The notes: generated by a model from the sequence alone, not told the origin. Positions 12,486-62,507 are shown, numbered from the stretch's first letter. The stretch is DNA of 64,000 nt from Escherichia coli (GCF_002854065.1 NZ_CP024147.1); one strand, 5' to 3'. Numbers and translations are program-made.

Positions 12486-15400
12486 ATGGCGAATTTCTTT
12501 ATTGATCGCCCCATTTTTGCCTGGGTGCTGGCAATCCTGTTGTGTCTGACAGGTACCCTGGCGATTTTTTCATTGCCCGTTGAACAATACCCCGATCTCG
12601 CGCCACCGAATGTGCGAGTGACCGCTAACTATCCCGGCGCATCGGCCCAGACGCTGGAAAACACCGTGACCCAGGTTATCGAGCAAAATATGACTGGCCT
12701 CGATAATCTCATGTATATGTCATCTCAGAGCAGTGGCACCGGTCAGGCATCTGTCACTTTAAGTTTTAAAGCAGGCACCGATCCGGACGAAGCCGTGCAG
12801 CAAGTACAAAACCAGCTGCAATCAGCCATGCGAAAGTTACCGCAGGCGGTGCAAAATCAGGGCGTGACGGTGCGTAAAACCGGCGATACCAACATTCTGA
12901 CCATTGCCTTCGTCTCTACCGATGGTTCGATGGATAAACAGGATATTGCTGATTATGTTGCCAGTAATATTCAGGACCCGTTAAGCCGCGTGAATGGCGT
13001 CGGGGATATCGATGCCTATGGTTCGCAATATTCCATGCGTATCTGGCTGGACCCGGCGAAACTCAACAGTTTCCAGATGACGGCTAAAGATGTCACTGAT
13101 GCCATTGAGTCACAGAACGCGCAGATTGCGGTTGGGCAACTTGGGGGTACACCTTCCGTCGATAAGCAGGCGCTCAACGCCACCATTAACGCCCAGTCAC
13201 TGCTGCAAACACCAGAACAGTTCCGCGATATCACCTTGCGGGTGAATCAGGACGGCTCAGAGGTAAGGCTGGGCGATGTCGCCACCGTCGAAATGGGGGC
13301 GGAGAAATACGATTATCTTAGCCGCTTCAATGGTAAGCCAGCCTCCGGGCTGGGGGTAAAACTGGCCTCCGGCGCTAACGAAATGGCGACAGCGGAGCTG
13401 GTGCTCAATCGTCTCGACGAGCTGGCGCAGTATTTCCCGCATGGACTGGAATACAAGGTGGCGTATGAAACCACCTCGTTTGTTAAAGCCTCCATTGAAG
13501 ACGTGGTGAAAACGCTGCTGGAAGCTATCGCTCTGGTTTTCCTCGTTATGTATCTGTTCCTGCAAAACTTCCGCGCCACGCTGATACCCACTATCGCCGT
13601 GCCGGTGGTGTTGATGGGAACCTTCTCCGTACTTTACGCCTTCGGTTACAGCGTCAACACCTTAACCATGTTCGCGATGGTGCTGGCGATCGGTCTGCTG
13701 GTGGATGACGCCATCGTGGTGGTGGAAAACGTCGAACGTATTATGAGTGAGGAAGGACTCACTCCTCGCGAAGCCACACGTAAATCGATGGGGCAGATCC
13801 AGGGGGCACTGGTCGGGATTGCGATGGTGCTTTCGGCGGTATTTGTACCAATGGCCTTCTTCGGCGGCACCACCGGTGCCATCTATCGCCAGTTCTCTAT
13901 TACCATTGTTGCGGCGATGGTGCTGTCAGTACTGGTAGCGATGATCCTCACTCCGGCTCTGTGTGCCACACTACTTAAGCCACTGAAAAAAGGTGAGCAT
14001 CACGGGCAAAAAGGCTTTTTTGCCTGGTTTAACCAGATGTTTAACCGCAACGCCGAACGCTTCGAAAAAGGGGTGGCGAAAATTCTCCACCGCAGCCTGC
14101 GCTGGATTGTGATTTATGTCCTGCTGCTTGGCGGCATGGTGTTCCTGTTCCTGCGTTTGCCGACGTCGTTCTTACCGCTGGAAGACCGTGGCATGTTTAC
14201 TACCTCGGTACAATTGCCCAGCGGTTCAACCCAACAACAGACCCTGAAAGTCGTTGAGCAAATCGAGAAATATTACTTCACCCATGAAAAAGACAACATC
14301 ATGTCGGTGTTTGCCACTGTTGGTTCTGGCCCTGGGGGTAACGGGCAAAACGTGGCGCGAATGTTTATCCGCCTGAAAGACTGGAGCGAACGCGACAGTA
14401 AGACCGGCACCTCATTTGCCATTATCGAGCGTGCAACGAAGGCGTTTAACAAGATTAAAGAAGCTCGCGTTATCGCCAGCAGCCCGCCAGCAATTAGCGG
14501 TCTTGGTAGTTCTGCGGGTTTTGATATGGAGTTGCAGGACCACGCTGGAGCAGGTCACGATGCGCTGATGGCAGCACGTAACCAGTTGCTGGCGCTGGCG
14601 GCGGAAAACCCGGAGCTAACCCGTGTGCGCCATAACGGCCTCGACGACAGTCCGCAGTTGCAGATTGATATCGACCAGCGTAAAGCTCAGGCGCTGGGCG
14701 TTGCTATCGACGATATTAACGACACACTGCAAACCGCCTGGGGTTCGAGCTATGTGAATGACTTTATGGATCGCGGTCGCGTGAAGAAAGTCTATGTGCA
14801 GGCAGCTGCGCCGTATCGCATGCTGCCAGATGACATCAATCTCTGGTATGTCCGAAATAAAGATGGCGGCATGGTGCCCTTCTCTGCTTTCGCGACCTCA
14901 CGCTGGGAGACAGGCTCGCCGCGTCTGGAACGCTATAACGGTTATTCTGCGGTTGAAATTGTTGGGGAAGCCGCACCGGGGGTCAGTACCGGTACGGCGA
15001 TGGATATTATGGAATCGTTAGTGAAGCAGCTGCCAAACGGCTTTGGTCTGGAGTGGACGGCGATGTCGTATCAGGAGCGGCTTTCCGGCGCGCAGGCTCC
15101 GGCGCTGTACGCCATTTCCTTGCTGGTGGTATTCCTGTGTCTGGCTGCATTGTATGAAAGCTGGTCGGTACCGTTCTCGGTAATGCTGGTCGTGCCGCTG
15201 GGGGTAATCGGCGCGCTGCTGGCAACCTGGATGCGCGGGCTGGAAAACGACGTTTACTTCCAGGTGGGCCTGTTAACGGTCATTGGTTTATCGGCGAAAA
15301 ACGCCATCCTGATCGTCGAGTTTGCTAACGAGATGAACCAAAAAGGCCACGACCTGTTTGAAGCAACGCTCCACGCCTGCCGTCAGCGTTTACGCCCGAT

Positions 15401-24777: not shown

Positions 24778-25350
24778 TTGACACTGTCATCGCAACATTA
24801 TCTGGTGATCACTGCGTTGGGTGCCGATCGCCCTGGAATTGTGAACACCATCACCCGTCATGTCAGTAGTTGCGGCTGTAATATTGAAGACAGTCGCCTG
24901 GCGATGCTGGGAGAAGAGTTCACGTTTATCATGCTGCTTTCCGGTTCATGGAATGCCATTACTCTGATTGAATCAACGTTACCGTTGAAAGGTGCCGAAC
25001 TGGATCTTTTAATCGTGATGAAGCGCACGACGGCGCGTCCGCGTCCGCCAATGCCAGCATCTGTCTGGGTTCAGGTCGATGTTGCAGACTCCCCGCATTT
25101 AATTGAACGCTTCACAGCACTTTTCGACGCGCATCATATGAACATTGCGGAGCTGGTGTCGCGCACACAACCTGCTGAAAATGAACGGGCTGCGCAGTTG
25201 CATATTCAGATTACTGCCCACAGCCCCGCATCTGCGGACGCAGCAAATATTGAGCAAGCGTTCAAAGCCCTATGTACAGAACTCAATGCACAAGGCAGTA
25301 TTAACGTCGTCAATTATTCCCAACATGATGAACAGGATGGAGTTAAGTAA
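24778..25350 (+). CDS. gcvR: Glycine cleavage system transcriptional repressor GcvR
   Basis: TTG start giving (M)TLSSQHYLVITALGADRPGIV (190 aa); ORF-track ATG 24712 over-extended; stop overlaps bcp start (taATGa at 25348-25352). Confidence 0.88.
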   Translation: MTLSSQHYLVITALGADRPGIVNTITRHVSSCGCNIEDSRLAMLGEEFTFIMLLSGSWNAITLIESTLPLKGAELDLLIVMKRTTARPRPPMPASVWVQVDVADSPHLIERFTALFDAHHMNIAELVSRTQPAENERAAQLHIQITAHSPASADAANIEQAFKALCTELNAQGSINVVNYSQHDEQDGVK

Positions 25351-25820
25351 TGAATCCACTGAAAGCCGGTGATATCGCACCGAAATTTAGCTTGCCGGAT
25401 CAAGACGGAGAACAAGTTAATTTGACCGACTTCCAGGGACAGCGTGTTCTGGTTTATTTCTACCCGAAAGCCATGACCCCCGGCTGTACCGTACAGGCCT
25501 GCGGCTTACGCGATAACATGGATGAGTTGAAAAAAGCGGGCGTTGATGTGCTGGGTATCAGCACCGATAAACCCGAAAAACTCTCCCGTTTTGCGGAAAA
25601 AGAGCTGCTTAACTTTACGCTCCTGTCTGATGAGGACCACCAGGTGTGCGAGCAATTCGGCGTCTGGGGGGAAAAGTCCTTCATGGGCAAAACCTACGAT
25701 GGTATTCATCGCATCAGCTTCCTGATTGACGCTGATGGCAAAATCGAACATGTCTTTGACGATTTCAAAACCAGCAATCACCACGACGTTGTGCTGAACT
25801 GGCTGAAAGAACACGCCTGA
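25350..25820 (+). CDS. bcp: Thiol peroxidase / bacterioferritin comigratory protein Bcp
   Basis: 156-aa ORF MNPLKAGDIAPKFSLPDQDGEQVNLTDF...; peroxiredoxin motif PGCT. Confidence 0.95.
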   Translation: MNPLKAGDIAPKFSLPDQDGEQVNLTDFQGQRVLVYFYPKAMTPGCTVQACGLRDNMDELKKAGVDVLGISTDKPEKLSRFAEKELLNFTLLSDEDHQVCEQFGVWGEKSFMGKTYDGIHRISFLIDADGKIEHVFDDFKTSNHHDVVLNWLKEHA

Positions 25821-26015
25821 TTACTTTGCTCCATTCCGTGCTGGCTGCGCTTGCGGTCAGCACACCTCACTTATCGTGATCAAGATCACATTCTCGCTTT
25901 CCCCTGCGACACGGGTGTCGAATCCATTTTTTGCTGAACGTTAATGACCATCATTTTTGTACCGTTCAGAATCCAGTTAATTCATAAATTATTGAATATA
26001 TTAAATTAATCAGAC

Positions 26016-26031
26016 TGGCATCCTTTATGCA
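26016..26031 (+). promoter_or_regulatory. Sigma-54 (-24/-12) promoter of the hyf operon
   Basis: tggcatcctttatgca matches TGGCAC-N5-TTGCA spacing (GG at 26017-26018, GC at 26029-26030); HyfR, a sigma-54 activator, is encoded downstream. Confidence 0.65.
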
Positions 26032-26033
26032 AT

Positions 26034-26690
26034 ATGAAATGCAATGTTTCATATCATTTTCAAGGAGCCGACATAAACCGCTTTGTGGTGGCCGAACCAC
26101 TGTGGTGTACAGGATGTAATACCTGTCTCGCTGCCTGTTCGGACGTGCATAAAACGCAAGGTTTACAGCAACACCCGCGCCTGGCCCTGGCGAAGACGTC
26201 AACACTCACTGCCCCTGTCGTGTGTCATCACTGTGAGGAAGCCCCTTGCCTGCAGGTCTGCCCGGTCAATGCCATCTCCCAGAGGGATGATGCGATCCAA
26301 CTCAACGAAAGCCTCTGTATTGGCTGCAAGCTTTGCGCCGTGGTCTGCCCATTTGGCGCAATCAGCGCTTCAGGAAGCCGTCCGGTGAATGCCCCTGCGC
26401 AATATGTTTTTCAGGCTGAAGGCTCACTCAAAGACGGCGAAGAAAACGCGCCAACCCAACATGCTTTGCTGCGCTGGGAACCGGGTGTCCAGACCGTCGC
26501 GGTGAAATGCGACCTGTGTGATTTCTTGCCACAAGGTCCGGCCTGCGTTCGCGCTTGCCCGAATCAGGCGTTACGGCTGATCACCGACGATAGCCTGCAA
26601 CGTCAGATGAAAGAAAAACAGCGCCTTGCCGCAAGCTGGTTTGCCAATGGCGGGGAGGATCCCCTTTCCCTCACTCAGGAGCAACGCTAA
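26034..26690 (+). CDS. hyfA: Hydrogenase-4 ferredoxin-type subunit HyfA (start codon uncertain)
   Basis: Four-cluster ferredoxin (CxxCxxCxxxC motifs); ORF-track ATG 26034 has no SD and lies upstream of the predicted sigma-54 start site; strong SD aaggag (26062-26067) precedes an ATA codon at 26073 where I recall the protein (MNRFVVAEP..., 205 aa) beginning. Confidence 0.85.
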   Translation: MKCNVSYHFQGADINRFVVAEPLWCTGCNTCLAACSDVHKTQGLQQHPRLALAKTSTLTAPVVCHHCEEAPCLQVCPVNAISQRDDAIQLNESLCIGCKLCAVVCPFGAISASGSRPVNAPAQYVFQAEGSLKDGEENAPTQHALLRWEPGVQTVAVKCDLCDFLPQGPACVRACPNQALRLITDDSLQRQMKEKQRLAASWFANGGEDPLSLTQEQR

Positions 26691-28708
26691 TGGATGCCCT
26701 GCAATTATTAACCTGGTCGCTGATCCTCTATCTGTTTGCCAGTCTGGCTTCGCTGTTTTTACTCGGTCTGGACAGACTGGCTATTAAGCTTTCCGGCATC
26801 ACATCGCTGGTGGGCGGCGTGATTGGCATTATCAGCGGAATTACGCAATTACATGCAGGCGTAACTTTAGTCGCCCGTTTTGCCACCCCTTTTGACTTTG
26901 CCGATTTAACCCTGCGAATGGATAGCCTCTCGGCATTTATGGTGCTGGTTATCTCCTTGCTGGTGGTGGTTTGTTCGCTCTATTCATTGACTTATATGCG
27001 CGAATACGAGGGCAAAGGCGCGGCGGCGATGGGCTTCTTTATGAATATTTTCATCGCATCGATGGTTGCCCTGCTGGTGATGGACAACGCTTTTTGGTTC
27101 ATCGTGCTGTTTGAAATGATGTCACTGTCTTCCTGGTTTCTGGTCATTGCCAGGCAGGATAAAAGGTCGATCAACGCTGGCATGCTCTACTTTTTTATCG
27201 CCCACGCCGGATCGGTGCTGATAATGATCGCCTTCTTGCTGATGGGGCGCGAAAGCGGCAGCCTCGATTTTGCCAGTTTCCGCACGCTTTCACTTTCTCC
27301 GGGGCTGGCGTCGGCGGTGTTCCTGCTGGCCTTTTTCGGTTTTGGCGCGAAAGCCGGGATGATGCCGTTGCACAGCTGGTTGCCGCGCGCTCACCCTGCC
27401 GCACCATCGCACGCTTCGGCGTTGATGTCTGGCGTAATGGTCAAAATCGGTATTTTCGGCATCCTGAAAGTGGCGATGGATCTGCTGGCGCAAACGGGTT
27501 TGCCGCTGTGGTGGGGCATTCTGGTGATGGCGATCGGCGCAATCTCCGCGCTCCTGGGCGTGCTGTATGCGCTGGCGGAACAGGATATCAAACGGCTGCT
27601 GGCCTGGAGTACCGTCGAAAACGTCGGCATTATTTTGCTGGCAGTCGGTGTGGCGATGGTCGGTCTGTCACTGCACGACCCGCTGCTCACCGTGGTTGGA
27701 CTGCTCGGCGCACTGTTTCATCTGCTCAACCATGCGCTGTTCAAAGGGCTGCTATTTCTCGGCGCGGGCGCGATTATTTCGCGTTTGCATACCCACGACA
27801 TGGAAAAAATGGGGGCACTGGCGAAACGGATGCCGTGGACAGCCGCAGCATGCCTGATTGGTTGCCTCGCGATATCAGCCATTCCTCCGCTGAATGGTTT
27901 TATCAGCGAATGGTACACCTGGCAGTCGCTGTTCTCACTAAGTCGTGTGGAAGCCGTAGCGCTACAACTTGCGGGTCCTATTGCTATGGTAATGCTGGCA
28001 GTCACTGGTGGGCTGGCAGTAATGTGCTTCGTCAAAATGTACGGTATTACTTTCTGTGGTGCGCCGCGCAGTACACACGCTGAAGAGGCACAGGAAGTGC
28101 CAAATACGATGATCGTCGCCATGCTACTGCTCGCGGCACTCTGCGTATTAATTGCGCTTAGTGCCAGTTGGCTGGCACCGAAGATAATGCATATTGCCCA
28201 TGCGTTTACCAATACCCCTCCCGTCACTGTCGCCAGCGGAATAGCACTTGTACCCGGCACGTTTCATACACAGGTCACCCCCTCATTACTGTTGCTGTTA
28301 CTACTGGCGATGCCTTTGCTGCCTGGCCTTTACTGGCTGTGGTGTCGTTCGCGCCGCGCAGCGTTTCGTCGCACAGGAGATGCCTGGGCATGCGGCTACG
28401 GCTGGGAAAATGCGATGGCCCCGTCAGGCAATGGCGTGATGCAGCCGCTGCGTGTGGTCTTTTCTGCGCTATTTCGTCTACGACAACAGCTCGACCCTAC
28501 GCTGAGGCTAAATAAAGGCCTTGCGCACGTCACCGCCAGGGCTCAGAGCACAGAACCCTTCTGGGATGAGCGGGTGATCCGCCCCATCGTGAGCGCCACC
28601 CAACGGCTGGCCAAAGAAATACAGCATCTGCAAAGCGGCGACTTTCGTCTCTATTGCCTGTATGTGGTTGCCGCACTGGTTGTGCTGCTAATCGCTATTG
28701 CCGTCTAA
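26690..28708 (+). CDS. hyfB: Hydrogenase-4 membrane subunit HyfB (NuoL/MrpA antiporter-like)
   Basis: 672-aa polytopic membrane ORF; start overlaps hyfA stop (taATGg). Confidence 0.93.
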   Translation: MDALQLLTWSLILYLFASLASLFLLGLDRLAIKLSGITSLVGGVIGIISGITQLHAGVTLVARFATPFDFADLTLRMDSLSAFMVLVISLLVVVCSLYSLTYMREYEGKGAAAMGFFMNIFIASMVALLVMDNAFWFIVLFEMMSLSSWFLVIARQDKRSINAGMLYFFIAHAGSVLIMIAFLLMGRESGSLDFASFRTLSLSPGLASAVFLLAFFGFGAKAGMMPLHSWLPRAHPAAPSHASALMSGVMVKIGIFGILKVAMDLLAQTGLPLWWGILVMAIGAISALLGVLYALAEQDIKRLLAWSTVENVGIILLAVGVAMVGLSLHDPLLTVVGLLGALFHLLNHALFKGLLFLGAGAIISRLHTHDMEKMGALAKRMPWTAAACLIGCLAISAIPPLNGFISEWYTWQSLFSLSRVEAVALQLAGPIAMVMLAVTGGLAVMCFVKMYGITFCGAPRSTHAEEAQEVPNTMIVAMLLLAALCVLIALSASWLAPKIMHIAHAFTNTPPVTVASGIALVPGTFHTQVTPSLLLLLLLAMPLLPGLYWLWCRSRRAAFRRTGDAWACGYGWENAMAPSGNGVMQPLRVVFSALFRLRQQLDPTLRLNKGLAHVTARAQSTEPFWDERVIRPIVSATQRLAKEIQHLQSGDFRLYCLYVVAALVVLLIAIAV

Positions 28709-28718
28709 GGAAATCACC

Positions 28719-29666
28719 ATGAGACAAACTCTTTGCGACGGATATCTGGTCATTCTTGCGTTAGCACAGGCCGTGATTCTGCTGATGCTAACCCCACTTT
28801 TTACGGGTATTTCCCGGCAGATACGCGCGCGAATGCACTCCCGCCGCGGACCGGGGATCTGGCAGGATTATCGCGATATCCACAAACTGTTTAAACGCCA
28901 GGAAGTTGCGCCGACATCTTCAGGTCTGATGTTCCGCCTGATGCCGTGGGTATTAATCAGCAGCATGCTGGTGCTGGCGATGGCCCTACCACTATTTATT
29001 ACCGTTTCCCCTTTTGCGGGCGGCGGCGATCTGATCACCCTTATCTATCTTCTTGCCCTGTTTCGTTTTTTCTTTGCTCTTTCAGGGCTGGATACCGGAA
29101 GCCCGTTTGCGGGAGTCGGTGCCAGTCGCGAGTTGACGCTCGGCATTCTGGTCGAACCCATGCTCATTCTCTCACTGCTGGTATTGGCGCTGATAGCGGA
29201 TTCCACGCATATCGAGATGATCAGCAATACGCTGGCGATGGGCTGGAACTCGCCGCTAACCACCGTACTGGCGTTACTGGCCTGTGGTTTTGCCTGCTTC
29301 ATTGAGATGGGAAAAATTCCCTTTGATGTTGCTGAAGCAGAACAGGAATTACAGGAAGGCCCGCTGACAGAATATTCCGGTGCCGGGCTGGCGCTGGCGA
29401 AATGGGGGCTGGGGCTGAAACAGGTCGTGATGGCAGCACTGTTTGTGGCCCTGTTTCTGCCCTTTGAGCGCGCGCAAGAACTTTCTCTCGCCTGCCTGCT
29501 GACTTCACTTGTCGTTACGCTGCTCAAGGTTTTGCTGATTTTTGTACTGGCCTCAATCGCAGAAAACACGCTGGCACGCGGGCGTTTTTTACTCATTCAC
29601 CATGTGACCTGGCTTGGCTTCAGCCTTGCTGCGCTTGCATGGGTCTTCTGGTTAACCGGTCTGTAA
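28719..29666 (+). CDS. hyfC: Hydrogenase-4 membrane subunit HyfC (NuoH-like)
   Basis: Start set at MRQTLCDGYLVILALAQ (315 aa). Confidence 0.92.
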   Translation: MRQTLCDGYLVILALAQAVILLMLTPLFTGISRQIRARMHSRRGPGIWQDYRDIHKLFKRQEVAPTSSGLMFRLMPWVLISSMLVLAMALPLFITVSPFAGGGDLITLIYLLALFRFFFALSGLDTGSPFAGVGASRELTLGILVEPMLILSLLVLALIADSTHIEMISNTLAMGWNSPLTTVLALLACGFACFIEMGKIPFDVAEAEQELQEGPLTEYSGAGLALAKWGLGLKQVVMAALFVALFLPFERAQELSLACLLTSLVVTLLKVLLIFVLASIAENTLARGRFLLIHHVTWLGFSLAALAWVFWLTGL

Positions 29667-29682
29667 GGAGCACTGACGGAAT

Positions 29683-31122
29683 ATGGAAAATCTTGCTCTG
29701 ACGACGTTAATGCTGCCTTTTATCGGCGCACTGGTCGTTTCGTTTTCGCCACAACGTCGGGCCGCCGAATGGGGGGTTTTGTTCGCCGCGCTGACCACGC
29801 TGTGCATGTTGTCGCTGATCTCCGCGTTTTATCAGGCCGATAAAGTTGCCGTCACGTTGACGTTGGTCAACGTGGGGGATGTGGCATTGTTTGGCCTGGT
29901 CATTGATCGCGTGAGTACGCTGATTCTGTTTGTGGTGGTGTTTCTCGGTTTGCTGGTCACGATCTACTCCACGGGTTATCTGACGGATAAAAATCGCGAA
30001 CACCCGCATAACGGCACGAATCGTTATTACGCATTTTTGCTGTTGTTTATCGGCGCGATGGCGGGACTGGTACTCTCCTCGACGCTGCTCGGTCAGTTGT
30101 TGTTTTTTGAAATTACGGGCGGCTGCTCCTGGGCGTTGATCAGTTATTACCAGAGCGATAAAGCACAGCGTTCAGCACTAAAAGCGTTACTTATCACTCA
30201 TATCGGCTCGTTGGGGTTGTATCTTGCCGCCGCCACGCTGTTTTTGCAGACCGAAACGTTTGCGCTTAGCGCGATGAGCGAGTTACACGGCGACGCACGT
30301 TATCTGGTTTATGGCGGCATCCTGTTTTCCGCGTGGGGGAAATCGGCCCAGCTACCGATGCAAGCGTGGCTACCGGACGCAATGGAAGCGCCAACACCGA
30401 TCAGCGCCTATCTCCACGCCGCATCGATGGTGAAAGTGGGCGTTTACATTTTTGCCCGCGCCATTATCGACGGCGGCAATATCCCGCATGTGATTGGCGG
30501 CGTTGGCATGGTCATGGCGCTGGTCACCATTCTTTATGGCTTCCTGATGTATTTGCCACAGCAGGATATGAAGCGGTTGCTGGCCTGGTCGACCATCACT
30601 CAACTTGGCTGGATGTTCTTCGGCTTGTCGCTCTCCATCTTCGGCTCGCGGCTGGCGCTGGAGGGCAGCATCGCCTACATCGTCAACCACGCGTTCGCTA
30701 AAAGCCTGTTTTTCCTTGTAGCAGGTGCGCTGAGTTACAGCTGCGGCACGCGCTTGTTGCCGCGTCTGCGTGGCGTATTGCACACCCTGCCGTTGCCAGG
30801 CGTGGGTTTCTGCGTGGCAGCGCTGGCGATTACCGGCGTACCGCCGTTCAACGGCTTCTTCAGTAAATTCCCGCTGTTTGCTGCCGGTTTTGCGTTGTCA
30901 GTGGAGTACTGGATCCTGCTGCCCGCCATGATTCTGCTGATGATTGAATCGGTCGCCAGTTTCGCCTGGTTTATTCGCTGGTTTGGTCGCGTCGTCCCCG
31001 GCAAACCGAGCGAGGCCGTCGCCGATGCCGCACCGCTGCCAGGGTCAATGCGCCTGGTGCTGATTGTACTGATTGTGATGTCGCTGATTTCCAGCGTAAT
31101 CGCCGCGACCTGGTTGCAGTAA
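29683..31122 (+). CDS. hyfD: Hydrogenase-4 membrane subunit HyfD (antiporter-like)
   Basis: 479-aa membrane ORF, NuoM/N-like. Confidence 0.92.
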   Translation: MENLALTTLMLPFIGALVVSFSPQRRAAEWGVLFAALTTLCMLSLISAFYQADKVAVTLTLVNVGDVALFGLVIDRVSTLILFVVVFLGLLVTIYSTGYLTDKNREHPHNGTNRYYAFLLLFIGAMAGLVLSSTLLGQLLFFEITGGCSWALISYYQSDKAQRSALKALLITHIGSLGLYLAAATLFLQTETFALSAMSELHGDARYLVYGGILFSAWGKSAQLPMQAWLPDAMEAPTPISAYLHAASMVKVGVYIFARAIIDGGNIPHVIGGVGMVMALVTILYGFLMYLPQQDMKRLLAWSTITQLGWMFFGLSLSIFGSRLALEGSIAYIVNHAFAKSLFFLVAGALSYSCGTRLLPRLRGVLHTLPLPGVGFCVAALAITGVPPFNGFFSKFPLFAAGFALSVEYWILLPAMILLMIESVASFAWFIRWFGRVVPGKPSEAVADAAPLPGSMRLVLIVLIVMSLISSVIAATWLQ

Positions 31123-31133
31123 GGAGATGATGA

Positions 31134-31784
31134 ATGACCGGTTCTATGATCGTAAATAATCTGGCGGGACTGATGATGCTGACATCGCTGTTTGTGATTA
31201 GCGTCAAAAGCTATCGCCTGTCATGCGGATTTTACGCCTGCCAGTCGCTGGTGCTGGTGTCTATTTTCGCCACTCTCTCGTGCCTGTTCACCGCAGAGCA
31301 ACTGCTGATCTGGTCCGCCAGCGCCTTTATCACCAAAGTGCTGCTGGTACCGTTAATCATGACTTACGCTGCACGAAATATTCCCCAGAACATCCCGGAA
31401 AAAGCGTTATTCGGTCCGGCAATGATGGCACTGCTCGCGGCGTTAATTGTCCTGCTTTGCGCATTTGTCGTTCAGCCCGTGAAGCTACCGATGGCTACCG
31501 GACTGAAACCGGCGCTGGCGGTGGCGTTAGGTCATTTTCTGCTTGGCCTGCTGTGCATTGTTAGCCAGCGCAATATCCTGCGGCAAATTTTTGGTTACTG
31601 CCTGATGGAAAACGGCTCCCATCTGGTGCTGGCGCTTCTAGCCTGGCGTGCACCGGAACTGGTGGAAATTGGTATCGCTACCGACGCCATCTTCGCCGTC
31701 ATTGTGATGGTGTTACTGGCAAGAAAAATATGGCGTACCCACGGCACGCTGGACGTGAACAACTTGACCGCGCTGAAGGGATAA
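31134..31784 (+). CDS. hyfE: Hydrogenase-4 membrane subunit HyfE
   Basis: 216-aa membrane ORF in operon position. Confidence 0.9.
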
Positions 31785-31788
31785 TGAG

Positions 31789-33369
31789 ATGAGTTATTCT
31801 GTGATGTTCGCTTTACTCCTGCTCACGCCGCTGCTTTTTTCGCTGCTCTGTTTTGCCTGCCGGAAACGGGGGCACTCTGCGACTCGCACGGTGACAGTAT
31901 TACATTGCTTAGGGATCACACTGCTGCTGATTCTGGCACTCTGGGTGGTCCAAACTGCCGCTGATGCAGGAGAAATATTCGCTGCGGGACTGTGGCTTCA
32001 TATTGATGGTCTGGGCGGTTTGTTCCTCGCCATTCTTGGTGTGATTGGCTTTCTCACCGGTGTTTACTCGATTGGCTACATGCGTCATGAAGTGGCACAC
32101 GGCGAGCTTTCACCCGTTACGCTGTGCGATTACTACGGTTTCTTCCATCTGTTTTTGTTCACCATGCTGCTGGTTGTTACCAGCAATAACCTGATTGTGA
32201 TGTGGGCGGCGATCGAAGCCACCACCTTAAGCTCGGCGTTTCTGGTAGGCATTTACGGTCAGCGTTCATCGCTGGAAGCAGCATGGAAGTACATCATTAT
32301 TTGTACTGTTGGTGTCGCTTTTGGTCTGTTCGGTACCGTGCTGGTATACGCCAACGCCGCCAGCGTTATGCCGCAGGCAGAAATGGCGATATTCTGGAGC
32401 GAGGTTCTTAAGCAATCGTCCTTGCTTGACCCAACATTAATGCTGTTGGCCTTTGTGTTTGTGCTAATTGGCTTTGGCACTAAAACCGGGCTATTCCCCA
32501 TGCACGCCTGGCTGCCAGATGCTCACAGTGAAGCGCCGAGTCCGGTCAGCGCCCTGCTCTCCGCCGTATTGCTGAACTGCGCGCTGTTGGTGCTTATTCG
32601 CTATTACATCATTATTTGCCAGGCCATCGGCAGCGATTTCCCCAACCGGTTATTGCTCATCTTCGGCATGTTGTCGGTTGCCGTGGCGGCATTTTTCATT
32701 CTGGTACAGCGGGACATTAAGCGTCTGCTGGCGTACTCCAGCGTGGAGAACATGGGACTGGTCGCGGTGGCGTTAGGCATTGGCGGGCCGCTGGGAATTT
32801 TTGCCGCGCTGCTGCACACCTTAAACCACAGTCTGGCAAAAACGCTGCTGTTCTGCGGTTCCGGCAATGTACTGCTCAAGTACGGCACACGCGATCTCAA
32901 CGTCGTCTGTGGGATGCTCAAAATCATGCCATTTACCGCCGTGCTGTTTGGCGGCGGTGCGCTGGCGCTGGCAGGGATGCCGCCCTTCAACATTTTTCTT
33001 AGCGAATTTATGACCGTTACCGCCGGACTGGCACGTAATCATCTGCTGATTATCGTCCTGCTGTTATTGCTGTTAACGCTGGTGCTGGCGGGCCTGGTAC
33101 GGATGGCTGCGCGGGTGTTAATGGCGAAACCGCCGCAGGCCGTTAACCGGGGTGATCTCGGCTGGTTGACCACCTCGCCAATGGTGATTCTGCTGGTCAT
33201 GATGCTGGCGATGGGAACGCATATTCCACAACCTGTCATCAGGATCCTGGCGGGCGCTTCCACTATAGTCCTCTCAGGGACGCACGACCTGCCTGCACAA
33301 CGTAGCACCTGGCATGATTTTTTGCCTTCAGGCACCGCATCTGTTTCGGAGAAACACAGTGAACGTTAA
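31789..33369 (+). CDS. hyfF: Hydrogenase-4 membrane subunit HyfF (antiporter-like)
   Basis: 526-aa membrane ORF, NuoN-like. Confidence 0.92.
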
Positions 33370-35074
33370 TTCATCGTCAAATCGTGGCGAAGCGATTCTC
33401 GCCGCCCTGAAAACGCAGTTCCCCGGCGCGGTGCTGGATGAAGAGCGACAAACGCCTGAACAGGTCACCATTACGGTGAAAATCAATCTGCTGCCTGACG
33501 TTGTACAGTATCTTTATTATCAACATGATGGCTGGCTTCCGGTCCTGTTTGGCAACGACGAGCGGACACTTAACGGTCATTACGCGGTTTATTATGCCCT
33601 TTCTATGGAAGGGGCCGAAAAATGCTGGATCGTGGTGAAGGCACTGGTCGATGCCGACAGTCGGGAGTTTCCGTCAGTCACACCGCGCGTCCCTGCCGCG
33701 GTCTGGGGCGAGCGAGAAATTCGCGATATGTACGGGCTGATTCCGGTTGGCCTGCCGGATCAGCGTCGCCTGGTGTTGCCCGATGACTGGCCGGAAGATA
33801 TGCATCCGCTGCGCAAAGATGCGATGGATTATCGACTGCGCCCTGAACCGACGACTGATTCCGAAACGTATCCGTTTATCAATAAGGGCAACAGCGATGC
33901 GCGGGTGATCCCTGTCGGCCCGCTGCATATCACCTCCGATGAACCGGGTCACTTCCGCTTGTTTGTGGATGGCGAGCAAATTGTCGATGCTGATTACCGC
34001 CTGTTTTATGTCCATCGCGGCATGGAGAAACTGGCAGAAACGCGGATGGGCTACAACGAAGTGACCTTCTTATCGGACCGCGTGTGTGGGATTTGCGGTT
34101 TTGCCCACAGTGTGGCCTATACCAACTCGGTTGAAAATGCACTGAGGATTGAGGTGCCGCAACGAGCGCATACCATTCGCTCGATTCTGCTGGAAGTCGA
34201 ACGGTTACACAGTCATTTGCTCAACCTTGGCCTCTCCTGCCATTTTGTTGGTTTTGATACCGGCTTTATGCAATTTTTCCGCGTGCGGGAAAAGTCGATG
34301 ACAATGGCGGAATTGCTGACCGGGTCGCGTAAAACCTACGGTCTGAATCTGATTGGTGGTGTTCGCCGCGATATTCTCAAAGAGCAACGTCTGCAAACGC
34401 TGAAACTGGTGCGCGAGATGCGCGCCGACGTGTCGGAGCTGGTAGAAATGCTGCTTGCCACGCCGAATATGGAACAACGCACTCAGGGCATTGGCATTCT
34501 CGACCGACAAATCGCCCGTGATTATAGCCCTGTAGGGCCGCTGATCCGCGGCAGTGGTTTTGCCCGTGATTTGCGCTTTGATCACCCCTACGCCGACTAC
34601 GGCAATATTCCAAAAACACTGTTTACCTTCACCGGCGGCGATGTTTTCTCCCGCGTGATGGTCCGTGTCAAAGAGACGTTTGATTCGCTGGCAATGCTGG
34701 AATTTGCTCTCGACAACATGCCGGATACCCCACTGCTGACCGAAGGCTTTAGCTATAAACCTCACGCATTCGCGCTCGGCTTTGTTGAAGCGCCACGCGG
34801 TGAAGACGTGCACTGGAGCATGCTCGGTGATAACCAAAAATTGTTCCGCTGGCGCTGTCGTGCCGCCACCTACGCCAACTGGCCGGTGCTGCGTTACATG
34901 CTACGCGGCAATACCGTTTCTGACGCACCGCTGATTATCGGTAGCCTTGATCCCTGCTACTCCTGTACCGACCGTGTGACGCTGGTTGATGTGCGCAAGC
35001 GCCAGTCAAAAACCGTGCCGTATAAAGAGATCGAACGCTACGGCATTGATCGTAACCGTTCGCCGCTGAAGTAA
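33359..35074 (+). CDS. hyfG: Hydrogenase-4 large (NiFe catalytic) subunit HyfG
   Basis: GTG 33359 preceded by ggaga (33347-33351); ORF-track ATG 33314 lacks SD; N-terminal RxCGxC-type motif ([11 protein letters not shown]) and C-terminal DPCYSCTDR Ni-binding motif. Confidence 0.9.
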
Positions 35075-35083
35075 GGACAGAAG

Positions 35084-35629
35084 ATGCTGAAGTTACTGAA
35101 AACTATTATGCGCGCCGGAACCGCGACGGTGAAATATCCCTTCGCGCCACTGGAGGTCAGCCCAGGCTTTCGCGGGAAACCGGACCTGATGCCCAGCCAA
35201 TGTATTGCCTGCGGTGCCTGCGCCTGTGCTTGTCCGGCAAATGCGCTGACTATCCAGACCGACGACCAGCAAAATTCGCGCACCTGGCAGCTCTATCTGG
35301 GGCGTTGTATTTACTGCGGACGTTGTGAAGAAGTGTGCCCGACCAGAGCCATCCAGCTTACCAATAACTTTGAACTGACCGTCACCAATAAAGCCGATCT
35401 CTATACCCGCGCGACGTTCCATCTACAACGTTGCAGCCGTTGCGAACGCCCGTTTGCCCCGCAAAAAACCGTCGCACTGGCTGCTGAATTGTTGGCACAG
35501 CAACAAAATGCGCCACAAAACCGCGAAATGTTGCGGGCGCAAGCGAGCGTCTGCCCGGAGTGCAAACAACGCGCGACGCTGATCAACGACGATACAGATG
35601 TACCGCTGGTGGCTAAGGAGCAGCTATGA
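35084..35629 (+). CDS. hyfH: Hydrogenase-4 ferredoxin subunit HyfH
   Basis: 181-aa ORF with two 4Fe-4S motifs ([24 protein letters not shown]). Confidence 0.92.
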
Positions 35630-36384
35630 GTCCAGTGCTTACACAACATGTCAGCCAGCCCATCACGCTAGACGAGCAAACGCAAAAGATGAAGCGGCAT
35701 TTGCTACAGGATATCCGTCGCTCAGCCTACGTTTATCGCGTCGATTGCGGCGGCTGCAACGCCTGTGAAATCGAAATTTTTGCCGCCATCACACCAGTAT
35801 TCGACGCAGAACGTTTTGGCATTAAGGTTGTTTCATCACCGCGTCACGCCGATATTTTGTTATTTACTGGCGCAGTCACCCGGGCGATGCGTATGCCTGC
35901 ACTTCGGGCGTATGAGTCTGCCCCCGATCATAAAATCTGTGTTTCCTACGGCGCGTGCGGTGTCGGCGGCGGTATTTTCCACGATCTCTACAGCGTCTGG
36001 GGCGGCAGCGACACCATTGTCCCCATTGATGTTTGGATCCCCGGCTGCCCGCCAACACCGGCCGCCACCATTCACGGTTTCGCCGTGGCGCTCGGTTTGC
36101 TGCAACAGAAGATTCACGCGGTGGATTATCGCGATCCCACCGGGGTGACTATGCAACCGCTGTGGCCGCAGATCCCGCCATCACAGCGTATCGCCGTTGA
36201 GCGAGAAGCGCGGCGGCTGGCGGGCTATCGTCAGGGGCGAGAAATTTGCGATCGTCTCCTGCGCCATTTAAGCGATGATCCTACAGGAAATCGGGTTAAC
36301 ACCTGGTTGCGCGAAGCCGACGATCCGCGTCTCAATAGTATCGTTCAGCAACTCTTTCGCGTACTCCGGGGGTTACATGACTGA
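35626..36384 (+). CDS. hyfI: Hydrogenase-4 small subunit HyfI (NuoB-like)
   Basis: 252-aa ORF; start overlaps hyfH stop; NuoB-like Cys motifs. Confidence 0.92.
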
Positions 36385-36790
36385 AGAGTGCGGGGAAATT
36401 GTTTTCTGGACGCTGCGAAAAAAGTTTGTCGCCAGTAGCGACGAGATGCCGGAACACAGCTCTCAGGTAATGTATTACTCACTGGCTATCGGTCATCACG
36501 TTGGCGTGATTGATTGTCTGAATGTCGCCTTCCGCTGCCCACTGACGGAATACGAAGATTGGCTTGCACTGGTCGAAGAGGAGCAAGCCCGACGTAAGAT
36601 GCTGGGGGTGATGACTTTTGGTGAGATTGTTATTGACACCAGCCACACCGCCCTGTTGACCCGGGCATTCGCGCCACTGGCGGATGACGCGACGTCTGTG
36701 TGGCAGGCGCGTAGCATTCAATTCATTCATCTGTTGGATGAAATTGTGCAGGAACCGGCCATCTATCTGATGGCCAGAAAAATTGCGTGA
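36377..36790 (+). CDS. hyfJ: Hydrogenase-4 component HyfJ (HycH-like)
   Basis: Start set at [16 protein letters not shown] (137 aa), overlapping hyfI stop (ATGACTGA); ORF track over-extended. Confidence 0.88.
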
Positions 36791-36819
36791 GAAGGATTTC
36801 TCATTAATAAGGACTGTTG

Positions 36820-38832
36820 ATGGCTATGTCAGACGAGGCGATGTTTGCCCCGCCACAAGGAATAACAATTGAAGCGGTAAACGGAATGCTCGCGGAGCGG
36901 TTAGCACAGAAACACGGCAAGGCGTCTTTATTACGCGCCTTCATCCCGCTGCCGCCGCCGTTCAGCCCGGTACAACTTATTGAACTGCATGTTCTCAAAA
37001 GCAACTTCTATTACCGCTACCATGATGATGGCAGCGATGTGACGGCAACAGTAGAGTATCAGGGCGAGATGGTCGATTATTCGCGTCACGCCGTCCTTCT
37101 CGGCAGTAGAGGAATGGCGGAGCTACGCTTTATACGTACCCACGGCAGCCGTTTTACTCCCCAGGATTGCACACTGTTTAACTGGCTGGCACGCATTATC
37201 ACCCCGGTTCTGCAATCATGGCTCAATGATGAAGAACAACAGGTGGCGCTGCGTTTGCTGAAGAAAGATTGCGATCATCATCGGGTACTGGTGGATATCA
37301 CTAATGCAGTGCTGTCACATCTTGATCTCGACGATCTGATCGCTGACGTCGCTCGTGAGATCCATCATTTTTTCGGTCTGGCTTCAGTCAGTATGGTACT
37401 GGGCGATCATCGAAAGAACGAGAAGTTCAGCCTGTGGTGCAGCGATCTTTCTGCCTCACATTGTGCGTGTCTGCCACGCAATATGCCTGGCGACAGTGTA
37501 TTGCTGACACAAACGCTACAAACCCGACAACCGACCTTGACGCACCGTGCAGACGATCTGTTTCTCTGGCAACGCGACCCGTTATTACACTTACTTGCAT
37601 CTAACGGCTGCGAATCTGCGCTCCTTATACCGCTTACCTTTGGCAACCATACACCGGGTGCATTGTTGCTGGCGCATACCTCTTCCACTCTCTTTAGTGA
37701 GGAAAACTGCCAGCTACTACAACACATAGCCGATCGCATCGCTATTGCCGTTGGCAATGCCGATGCCTGGCGTAGCATGACCGATTTGCAGGAAAGTTTG
37801 CAGCAAGAAAACCACCAGCTTAGCGAGCAGCTCCTTTCGAATCTGGGCGTCGGTGACATTATCTATCAAAGCCAGGCAATGGAAGACCTGCTCCAGCAGG
37901 TAGATATTGTGGCGAGGAGCGACAGTACGGTGTTGATTTGCGGTGAAACCGGAACTGGCAAAGAGGTGATCGCCAGAGCGATCCATCAACTTAGCCCGCG
38001 ACGCGACAAGCCGCTGGTCAAAATCAACTGCGCTGCCATCCCCGCCAGTCTTCTGGAAAGTGAGTTATTCGGTCATGACAAAGGGGCGTTTACTGGTGCG
38101 ATTAATACCCATCGTGGTCGTTTTGAAATTGCCGATGGCGGCACGTTGTTTCTCGATGAAATTGGCGATCTGCCGTTAGAACTTCAGCCTAAACTGCTGC
38201 GCGTATTGCAGGAGCGGGAGATTGAGCGTCTCGGCGGGAGTAGAACGATCCCGGTGAATGTCAGAGTCATTGCCGCCACCAACCGTGATTTGTGGCAAAT
38301 GGTTGAAGATCGCCAGTTTCGCAGCGATCTCTTTTATCGCCTGAATGTCTTCCCACTGGAATTGCCGCCGCTACGCGACCGTCCGGAAGATATCCCTCTT
38401 TTAGCAAAACATTTCACGCAAAAAATGGCGCGCCATATGAATCGCGCAATTGACGCCATCCCGACCGAGGCACTACGCCAGTTGATGTCGTGGGATTGGC
38501 CGGGCAACGTGCGCGAGCTGGAAAACGTGATTGAGCGGGCGGTACTGCTGACTCGCGGTAACAGTCTGAATTTACATCTAAATGTCCGACAAAGCCGTTT
38601 ACTGCCGACGCTAAATGAAGATTCAGCGCTTCGCAGTTCAATGGCGCAGTTGCTGCACCCGACGACGCCAGAGAATGACGAAGAAGAACGTCAGCGCATT
38701 GTTCAGGTATTGCGAGAAACCAATGGCATTGTTGCCGGGCCCCGTGGCGCGGCGACACGATTAGGGATGAAGCGCACCACGCTGCTGTCACGAATGCAGC
38801 GTCTGGGGATCTCGGTTCGCGAGGTGTTGTAA
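36820..38832 (+). CDS. hyfR: Sigma-54-dependent transcriptional activator HyfR (FhlA homologue)
   Basis: GAF-type N-terminal region, AAA+ sigma-54 interaction domain ([14 protein letters not shown]), C-terminal HTH. Confidence 0.93.
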
Positions 38833-38853
38833 TCTGCTTTTGCAGGAGTATGC

Positions 38854-39702
38854 ATGAGAAATAAACTCTCTTTCGACTTGCAGTTGAGCGCCAGAAAAGC
38901 GGCAATCGCTGAACGGATTGCCGCCCATAAAATTGCCCGCAGTAAAGTGTCGGTCTTTTTAATGGCGATGTCCGCTGGCGTGTTTATGGCGATTGGATTT
39001 ACTTTTTACCTTTCCGTTATCGCCGATGCCCCGTCTTCACAGGCATTAACCCATCTGGTGGGCGGCCTTTGCTTTACACTCGGCTTTATTTTGCTGGCGG
39101 TTTGCGGCACCAGCCTGTTCACCTCGTCGGTAATGACGGTGATGGCAAAAAGTCGGGGCGTTATTAGTTGGCGAACTTGGCTGATTAACGCACTTCTGGT
39201 GGCCTGCGGTAATCTGGCAGGTATTGCCTGTTTCAGTTTGTTAATCTGGTTTTCCGGGCTGGTGATGAGTGAAAACGCGATGTGGGGAGTCGCGGTTTTA
39301 CACTGCGCCGAGGGCAAAATGCATCATACATTTACTGAATCTGTCAGCCTCGGCATTATGTGCAATCTGATGGTTTGCCTGGCGCTGTGGATGAGTTATT
39401 GCGGGCGTTCGTTATGCGACAAAATCGTCGCCATGATTTTGCCCATCACCCTGTTTGTCGCCAGTGGCTTTGAGCACTGTATCGCCAATTTGTTTGTGAT
39501 TCCGTTCGCCATTGCCATTCGCCATTTCGCCCCTACCTCCTTCTGGCAACTGGCGCACAGTAGCGCAGACAATTTTCCGGCACTGACGGTAAGCCATTTT
39601 ATTACCGCCAATCTGCTCCCGGTGATGCTGGGTAATATTATCGGCGGTGCAGTGCTGGTGAGTATGTGTTATCGGGCTATTTATTTACGTCAGGAATCCT
39701 GA
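38854..39702 (+). CDS. focB: Formate channel FocB (FNT family)
   Basis: 282-aa membrane ORF; formate/nitrite transporter family; follows hyfR. Confidence 0.92.
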   Translation: MRNKLSFDLQLSARKAAIAERIAAHKIARSKVSVFLMAMSAGVFMAIGFTFYLSVIADAPSSQALTHLVGGLCFTLGFILLAVCGTSLFTSSVMTVMAKSRGVISWRTWLINALLVACGNLAGIACFSLLIWFSGLVMSENAMWGVAVLHCAEGKMHHTFTESVSLGIMCNLMVCLALWMSYCGRSLCDKIVAMILPITLFVASGFEHCIANLFVIPFAIAIRHFAPTSFWQLAHSSADNFPALTVSHFITANLLPVMLGNIIGGAVLVSMCYRAIYLRQES

Positions 39703-60595: not shown

Positions 60596-62507
60596 TCACT
60601 GGAAACAAGTAACCAGACCAGGTTTATTGGCTAACGTGATACTACAATCCTCTGTGCCAGTGCTCTCGTCCATCCCACACCGTTGAGAGGACAAGTAAGG
60701 GAAACTTGGCGAAGCTGGCCATCCCAGCGAATTAAACACAGCATACAATGTCTCTAACTCATTGTATGTCGGTGCATTTTCTATATTTCCACACTGCTTC
60801 GAGATATCCCATTTGCTGGCATCAGTAATATGCGCAGAAGCCCAGTTTTCGTAGTTAATAATCGGTGAGGATACGGGATTGGCCCCGGACGGTAATTCAG
60901 TTGTCAGTATCGGTCGATGTAATGTTTTTCCATTCACCACTGCCGTGTCTGCCATATGCCCCCAGAAGTGAGCAGAAGATACATTTGGGCTGGTCAATAC
61001 GGTGAAAATAGTGTCCATCATTGCAGTCACTGTTGGGTATTTATCCAGCGTTACCGTCAGCGGCGTTTTATAACCCGGCGTATTGTCCTGACGAACAGTA
61101 AAGTTTGCCGTGCCGTCTGCCCCCGTCACGCCACTGATCTCGTTCCCACTAACCGCTAATAGGGTAGCCGCCCCCGATGATGGCTGGATGGTAATATCAT
61201 CCATAGCCGCCACATCGCCATATAGCGTCGCCCCACTATTACGCGGAGAGGCATCACCACGTCGCAGAGTAAACGCCACATTTGGCACAGGTTTCCCGGC
61301 GCTGTCTTTCACCGTCACGGTGACTGGCATTGCCTCGCCCTTCTTCACTTTCGCCGCCTGAGTGGTGGAGTCAAATGCCGTTGACGTCAGGGTGACGGTA
61401 GAAACCGTTGAGTGAGGGTGCACCAGGCACGCCTGGAAGGCGCGGCTTTTAGATACAGTAACAATTTGACCTGTATTGAAGTCAAATGATTCACAAGAAT
61501 TCGCGCCCGCAGGACAATCTGCATTTGTCCACCACACATAGCTATTCTGTTTCACCGGCCAGCCAATCTCATTGACGATAGAGCCATTCGGATAGCGGTT
61601 GTATAAAGATTGAAGCTCATCCAACGATGGATATCGTGCGCTTTCACAAGGGGTAAGCTCCGGCAAATATCGCTGGGTAATATATGGCGCAGGCCAGCTT
61701 TCATTATTTATATTCACTTTAGTGAGCGAATAACCGCCACCGCTGGTTGCCCCCATTTCGGTCCACAGTTTCATCCGCTCAAACTGCGTTCCGTCTGCTG
61801 AGCTTACCGTTTCTGGCATATGTCCCCAGAAATTGGCTTTGGGCGTATCCGGGCTTGTTACTACGGTATACATCAGGTCGAGATCTGACTTTACCCCTGT
61901 GTCACGTGCAAGCGTCGCCGTAAACGGTGTTACCAGTCCCCAGGTATTATCCTGCGTAGCGGTTAACGTGATGATGCCATTACCGTCCGTAACCCCGTTC
62001 CAACTGGCGTTATCATCTGCAAATTTGTAATTGGCTTGCGCAACCGGCGTCAGGAACTGTAGCAGTAGATCATCTGCTGTCGAGCTTTTGAAATCACTCG
62101 TAGTGCGCACTTGTGCTGTCGCACGCGACAACGTGACGCTTTCATAGGCGGCAGGTCTGCCCGCATCATCCGTGACCTTGATGGTTAACGGTATTGATTC
62201 GCCCTTCTTCGCCCATGCGGTCGGACGGTTGTCGTTGATGCCTGTTTTGTCCGCATTCAGCAACGTAGAGGTCAACTCAATCTTCGTTGCCTCAGTGTGC
62301 GGGGTCAACCAGGCAGAGCATTAAATTGCCCGCCGTCGATGTTGTGCTTTCGTTGCGGATAGCACCGTCCATCAGATTAAGCACCTGGTTATACCATGTT
62401 GAACTTGAAACAGTTTGATCGTACGCCCACCAGTAATTACCTGCGTTAAGAGGCAGCCCCAAATCAGTTTCCAGCGCACCATTTGGATGGTCGTTGTAAA
62501 GCCCCAT
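60596..62507 (-). pseudogene. RatA/RatB-invasin-like repetitive Ig-domain protein, C-terminal part, reading frame broken
   Basis: ORFs 62292-62507 and 60596-62308 share the repeat architecture of the upstream ORF (WGHM motif, LYN...GWP motif, VTVKD..G.P....FTL.RGD Ig-like motif); frames joined only by a 1-nt shift in the G4 run at 62301-62304. Confidence 0.55.

Follow-up and report, generated by a model that had tools for sequence, protein, structure and literature searches.

A derived ATG-to-ATA change at the hyfA start codon in a small Escherichia coli clade, consistent with a knock-down of HyfA in the hydrogenase-4 operon

We analyzed a 64,000-nt stretch of an Escherichia coli chromosome (GCF_002854065.1, NZ_CP024147.1), referred to here as the window, with positions counted from its first nucleotide. 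At 25350 to 25820 lies bcp, which is followed by a 252-nt spacer and then by hyfABCDEFGHIJ-hyfR-focB, such that hyfA, downstream of bcp, is the first gene of the hyfABCDEFGHIJR-focB series. Sequence comparison identifies this locus as the E. coli hydrogenase-4 (hyf, FHL-2) operon; the locus, its promoter, and the gene were all already known. The nearest complete genome was that of strain 100416 (NZ_CM128593.1; human stool, Gambia), to which positions 148 to 61722 aligned with 12 substitutions and no indels (61.6 kb aligned). At the left end of the window, an IS1 copy (148 to 916) adjoins maeB, and the first 147 nt had no match in strain 100416. That strain carries an additional 768-bp IS1 in a large adhesin gene at the equivalent of 61715 to 61722, which is absent from the window.

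The hyfA coding region (26073 to 26690, plus strand) comprises 205 codons. Codons 2 to 205 encode a sequence identical to RefSeq HyfA WP_001400729.1, and the four Cys-rich 4Fe-4S motifs are undamaged. At the nucleotide level, the gene equals hyfA of strain 100416 except at position 26075, and the HyfA protein with its initial methionine restored was present in the protein collection under the name HyfA. Because these matches are exact, the identity of hyfA is settled. Downstream, hyfB to hyfJ, hyfR, and focB (26690 to 39702, plus strand) are all full-length open reading frames (ORFs) of the annotated lengths. The ATG of hyfB overlaps the hyfA stop codon (TAATG) and has its own AGGAG (26677 to 26681) 8 nt ahead of it. 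A Shigella-like decay of the hyf locus was rejected, given that every hyf ORF is full length and that only the 12 single nucleotide polymorphisms (SNPs) separate 61.6 kb of the window from strain 100416.

The spacer contains a sigma-54 (RpoN) −24/−12 promoter at 26015 to 26031 on the plus strand, read directly from the sequence as CTGGCATCCTTTATGCA and made up of TGGCAT (26016 to 26021), a 5-nt gap (CCTTT), and ATGCA (26027 to 26031). The spacing was judged from the second G of the GG to the G of the GC, a distance of 11 nt in a TGGCAC-N5-TTGCW-like context, and the GG at 26017 to 26018 and the GC at 26029 to 26030 are canonically spaced. The element is equal in 16 of 17 bases to the K-12 motif ATGGCATCCTTTATGCA, which is sigma-54 ChIP-seq site OS23 (PMC4591121, Table 1). 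Thus, the near-consensus element that a preliminary description had placed at 26016 to 26031 corresponds to the known hyf promoter. Only the first base differs (C in the window, A in K-12), and the C belongs to a common E. coli haplotype found on 23 of 73 metagenome contigs. OS23 is flagged as an experimentally confirmed promoter, with the transcript start predicted 19 bp past the motif center and 31 bp upstream of hyfA (PMC4591121). In addition, the K-12 bcp-hyfA spacer gave the top RpoN holoenzyme gSELEX peak (PMC8743547). Binding of the sigma-54 holoenzyme has thus been published for the K-12 sequence, with which the window shares 16 of 17 motif bases.

The window has the same start geometry as the K-12 site: the motif center at 26023 plus 19 nt gives a predicted start for the hyfABCDEFGHIJ transcript at 26042 to 26043 on the plus strand, 31 nt before 26073. 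This is the position (about 26042) proposed in the preliminary description, and it does not fall upstream of 26034, a placement that would have undone that proposal. Primer extension by Skibinski et al. in 2002 reportedly put the transcript start 30 bp upstream of hyfA. A TGGCA[CT]-N5-[AT]TGC element also occurs 54 to 99 nt upstream of hyfA orthologues in Citrobacter, Kosakonia, Atlantibacter, Sodalis, Dickeya, Morganella, and Providencia. The heptamer ATGCAAT is present twice, 12 nt apart (26027 to 26033 and 26039 to 26045); the −12 TGCA is within the first copy, and the predicted transcript start is within the second. This duplication may be due to chance in AT-rich DNA.

Other elements of the spacer lie farther upstream. 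A GC-rich hairpin just past the bcp stop codon (25838 to 25863; GTGCTGGCTGC...GCGGTCAGCAC) had a predicted energy of −20.2 kcal/mol (z = −4.2) with no T-tract after it, and it may act as a 3' stabilizer or terminator element of bcp. The sequence CGACAcgggTGTCGAA (25907 to 25922) was flagged as terminator-like by our scan. It resembles TGTCG/CGACA pairs that precede hyf by comparable distances in Citrobacter, Kosakonia, Atlantibacter, Morganella, Providencia, and Dickeya. On account of this resemblance, CGACAcgggTGTCGAA is more likely a candidate FhlA/HyfR enhancer site, of the kind expected about 100 to 150 bp upstream, than a terminator. Next to it, GAACGTTAATGACC (25937 to 25950) matches the FhlA consensus (taken from PMC7658346) at 10 of 14 positions by hand count, and the block AATGACCATCAtTTTTGT (25937 to 25963), adjacent to CGACAcgggTGTCGAA, is nearly identical in Citrobacter and Kosakonia.

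A perfect 8-bp inverted repeat surrounds the predicted transcript start (26032 to 26054), with arms ATATGAAA (26032 to 26039) and TTTCATAT (26047 to 26054) separated by 7 nt. The preliminary description had reported a 7-bp repeat within the leader. The repeat itself is present, with arms 1 bp longer on each side, but its location must be revised: its center at 26043 coincides with the transcript start and its left arm lies upstream of it, so the repeat straddles the start rather than sitting in the leader. Since the left arm would not be transcribed from the sigma-54 start, the repeat is not a leader RNA hairpin, and the predicted fold of the 69-nt leader beginning at that start is no more stable than those of shuffled sequences (z = −0.3). 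A role as a conserved operator was also unsupported. Perfect inverted repeats with arms of at least 8 bp occurred in 4% of 2,000 dinucleotide shuffles of the 252-nt spacer (P ~0.04), which is only marginally nonrandom, and the 280 nt searched contained five inverted repeats in all, this palindrome included. Six E. coli spacer haplotypes and 71 of 73 metagenome contigs share the repeat without change; the remaining 2 contigs carry an uncompensated T-to-A change at 26033 in the left arm, which breaks the repeat, and no sequence conservation of the palindrome was found in Citrobacter or Kosakonia. The palindrome is probably incidental.

A strong Shine-Dalgarno (SD) sequence, AAGGAG, was read directly at 26062 to 26067 on the plus strand, 5 nt upstream of the hyfA start position, and a GGAG-type equivalent was found in hyfA orthologues. 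At that position, codon 1 (26073 to 26075, plus strand) is ATA in place of ATG through a G-to-A change at 26075 (M1I), so that the canonical start expected at the conserved MNRF position is missing from the window. The RefSeq gene (WP_001400729.1, 205 amino acids [aa]) begins as ATG at exactly the equivalent of 26073 in 100416, CUWW06, and XH990. This agrees with two points of the preliminary description, namely, that the SD points to an ATA at 26073 and, put there as a condition, that HyfA starts with MNRFVV. It also disposes of a reference start at another in-frame position, which would have left an intact canonical codon here; the orthologues open at the same MNRF behind an SD. An alignment of 25960 to 26110 to 100416 and CUWW06 showed ATG versus ATA as the only difference, and across 25821 to 26220 the change at 26075 is likewise all that separates the window from these two nearest genomes. 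Compared with the hyf locus of K-12, the window has the same bcp-hyfABCDEFGHIJR-focB order, the same motif-to-gene distance, the same SD, and the same coding sequence from codon 2 onward; apart from the first base of the 17-bp promoter motif, it is unlike K-12 in its codon 1.

We polarized the 12 SNPs by means of 100416 together with TUM18780 and Santai. The window allele was the odd one out at 14062 (acrD Y526F), 23145 (bamC S-to-N), 26075 (hyfA M1I), and 36255 (hyfI, synonymous), and codon 1 of hyfA was ATG in all three compared genomes. To gauge rarity, we scanned the complete RefSeq E. coli genomes carrying hyfA (n = 4,297) for the exact 61-mer at 26045 to 26105. The ATG version was found exactly in 4,281 of them and the ATA version in none. 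An exact-pattern scan of metagenome contigs likewise returned 76 with ATG and 0 with ATA. In about 40 orthologous loci from species of other genera, the start codon is ATG (GTG in hycB-like loci), followed by AAY CGY TTY. These comparisons indicate that the hyfA ATG is essentially invariant and that ATA is derived. Of the two alternatives offered in the preliminary description, the first, a G-to-A mutation of the start codon, is the one that stood. No other canonical in-frame start lies at SD distance on the predicted transcript, and by sequence comparison the gene in the window is still hyfA, in a start-lost form. The hyfA segment as a whole was lacking from 1,129 of 5,426 complete E. coli genomes (~21%).

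The ATA codon was not confined to the window. It was carried by GCA_035821435.1 (2 differences from the window in 20,657 positions), by GCA_036586275.1 (0 differences across 2486 to 27237, 24.7 kb), and by the Logan assembly of run ERR10376543 (1 SNP in 14,135 positions). With at least three other assemblies at 0 to 2 SNPs from the window, the allele is, as judged from these alignments, inherited in a small natural clade that several projects have sampled. Since it recurs in assemblies with SNPs of their own, we regard it as heritable and not as an assembly artifact.

The explanation that best accounts for these observations, and that we hold with good though not complete confidence, is the loss of the hyfA start codon in a small clade, producing a strong and tolerated knock-down of HyfA within a known hyf operon. 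Around the mutation, nothing has changed in the sigma-54 promoter, in the geometry of the transcript start, in the SD, or in the sequence from hyfA codon 2 through codon 205 to focB. The predicted leader is unstructured and its predicted fold is the same with ATG or ATA; therefore, the mutation would act through codon-anticodon recognition and not through structure. Ribosomes would still bind the strong SD and would have to initiate on the near-cognate AUA. Initiation on AUA in vivo was 1 to 2% of that on AUG in one reporter and 0.02 to 3% in others (bioRxiv 10.1101/063800), a range at which HyfA synthesis would fall to traces and leave FHL-2 functionally knocked down. Translation of HyfB and the subsequent proteins could continue from the ribosome-binding sites of their own genes, although lost coupling or polarity might lower its level; this is expected because hyfB has its own AGGAG and the downstream ORFs retain their annotated lengths. 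Two in-frame GTG codons at 26085 to 26090 (plus strand, HyfA codons 5 and 6; read directly) are possible weak fallback starts, although the one at 26085 is 17 nt and the one at 26088 is 20 nt from the SD, far past the usual spacing. The preliminary description had spoken of hyfA being silenced. "Strong knock-down" is the better term, because some initiation on AUA persists and each downstream gene can rely on a ribosome-binding site of its own. The mutation itself is of an ordinary knock-down kind, a single G-to-A change, and the rare, derived, heritable hyfA allele is the only new item here.

The consequence for FHL-2 depends on what HyfA does. HyfA has been modeled with a surface 4Fe-4S cluster in contact with FdhF, and native expression of Hyd-4 in E. 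coli is poor (PMC7384014). In this model, HyfA is a ferredoxin-like subunit that would wire formate dehydrogenase H to the hydrogenase, and its presumed requirement is based on that FHL-2 model and on the part played by HycB in FHL-1. HycB of formate hydrogenlyase-1 resembles HyfA in its N terminus (MNRF...), in its 4Fe-4S Cys motifs, in being encoded by the first gene after a sigma-54 promoter, and in its modeled link of FdhH to the hydrogenase (PMC7384014). Unlike HyfA, HycB is a paralogue in a separate, well-expressed operon. The allele would be tolerated because E. coli expresses hyf poorly and about a fifth of complete genomes do without it. In leaving a lineage without effective Hyd-4, it would be similar to the loss of hyf from many natural E. 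coli strains and to its cryptic state in K-12, where it is poorly expressed; it differs in that a point mutation at the translation start leaves the structural genes intact, with no deletion.

A broader reading, which we consider unlikely, is that the start loss is one step in a recurrent, perhaps adaptive, convergent silencing of hyf in natural E. coli. Within the ATA clade, the ERR10376543 assembly has further acquired a G-to-A change at 26017, which turns the −24 GG into AG (TAGCAT) and is its sole SNP relative to the window in 14 kb. The position is nearly invariant, with G in 184 of 186 characterized RpoN promoters (PMC7658346, Table 2). The identical change was found in four complete genomes (O145:H28 strains RM12761 and RM13516, FDAARGOS_943, and LH50-c) on three spacer haplotypes, and 1 of the 73 metagenome contigs has it on yet a fifth haplotype, which places it on at least four haplotypes other than that of the clade. 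In FDAARGOS_943, hyfB is also annotated as frameshifted, making two hits in one hyf operon, and the ~21% of complete genomes without hyfA fit the same picture. However, the numbers are tiny (4 of ~3,800 genomes) and the choice of site was post hoc. Other spacer variants (26022 C-to-T and 26033 T-to-A) also occur on two haplotypes each; therefore, the recurrence may reflect recombination or ordinary mutation, and the same pattern would be expected from the neutral decay of an operon already dead or cryptic. Neutral decay and selection against hyf expression would each accommodate the −24 recurrence, and we do not claim selection. If the reading were true, hyf would represent the ongoing convergent silencing of an energy-converting hydrogenase. 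Even taken only as a hint, the ATA allele and the recurrent −24 G-to-A change point to relaxed or negative selection on hyf in E. coli, which bears on the long-running question of the role of hydrogenase-4 in this species.

It is improbable, in our view, that ATA is instead a genuine and adequate non-canonical start, with enough HyfA being made for the allele to be silent or a mild down-tuning. The initiation region is favorable for such a start, with a strong AAGGAG at 5-nt spacing and an unstructured leader, and in vitro an AUA mRNA with an optimized initiation region was translated as well as an AUG mRNA at 20 to 40°C (PMC5499595). Given this in vitro parity, the strong and well-spaced SD, and the open leader, residual HyfA could exceed the reporter values. 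Several isolates have inherited the allele with all downstream hyf ORFs intact, and its persistence to a divergence of a few SNPs with no second disabling coding mutation would also be expected of a gene that still functions. Set against this are the low in vivo efficiency of AUA relative to AUG and the fact that the other E. coli genomes, metagenome contigs, and orthologues use only ATG or GTG at this codon, so that there is no sign of selection ever having favored ATA.

Native near-cognate starts offer a useful comparison. The infC gene of E. coli has a native near-cognate AUU start, and starts of this kind are reported to be shared among species and to serve in regulation. Like infC, the hyfA allele has an AUN near-cognate codon behind a functional SD at the required initiation position. 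Unlike infC, its ATA is private to the clade and derived, without any conservation: a conservation test for a native non-canonical start failed, with ATA in 0 of 4,297 genomes, on 0 metagenome contigs compared with 76 for ATG, and in 0 of about 40 orthologues. The strong knock-down remains our preferred reading. The two alleles form a natural pair, ATG versus ATA, set in the same native surroundings with a strong SD and an open leader, and they would allow near-cognate initiation to be measured in living cells. The same pair could be used to ask whether Hyd-4 activity in E. coli needs HyfA.

Translation from the ATG at 26034 to 26036 (plus strand), which would give a 218-aa HyfA with a 13-residue N-terminal extension (MKCNVSYHFQGAD), is very improbable. 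This codon is the sole canonical in-frame start upstream, and the 218-aa product appeared as gene calls on four contigs of the protein collection, where no source gives it a name or accession. The ATG is located between the −12 element and the predicted +1, 8 nt upstream of the predicted transcript start, with no SD upstream of it in the sequence, and it falls outside the sigma-54 transcript because the predicted start at about 26042 matches the published K-12 site. The hairpin just past bcp would make read-through transcription into it less likely, and the genomes in which hyfA has its ATG start all possess this upstream ATG as well, which RefSeq passes over. We accordingly rejected the 218-aa ORF as the likely HyfA product. 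The ATG at 26034 is probably not used, which is what the preliminary description had expected of the only in-frame upstream ATG, and neither this codon nor the palindrome has a part in any new mechanism.

Gene callers treated the start-lost allele in different ways. In GCA_036586275.1, the gene call opens at the ATA itself and yields a normal-looking 205-aa product, which could be taken to favor a functional ATA start, while other callers moved to 26034 and reported the 218-aa ORF. The annotation conceals the loss of the start codon in this manner, and pan-genome surveys would count hyfA as intact in the ATA clade.

A sequencing or assembly error in one genome, which a one-base difference from the closest complete genome and the absence of the exact sequence among RefSeq complete genomes might have suggested, is effectively refuted by the recurrence of ATA in two NCBI drafts produced by separate projects and in a Logan assembly made independently, whose mutual SNPs at other positions argue against a single read set.

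Among the other derived alleles of the window, the bamC S-to-N change was discarded as a clade-private marker, as it also occurs in diverged lineages bearing ATG. The Y526F change in the RND efflux pump AcrD (14062), derived relative to the three comparison genomes, was found as F526 on 8 contigs of the protein collection, including those of GCA_036586275.1 and ERR3985283. The former has the hyfA ATA, and the ERR3985283 contig ends short of hyfA.
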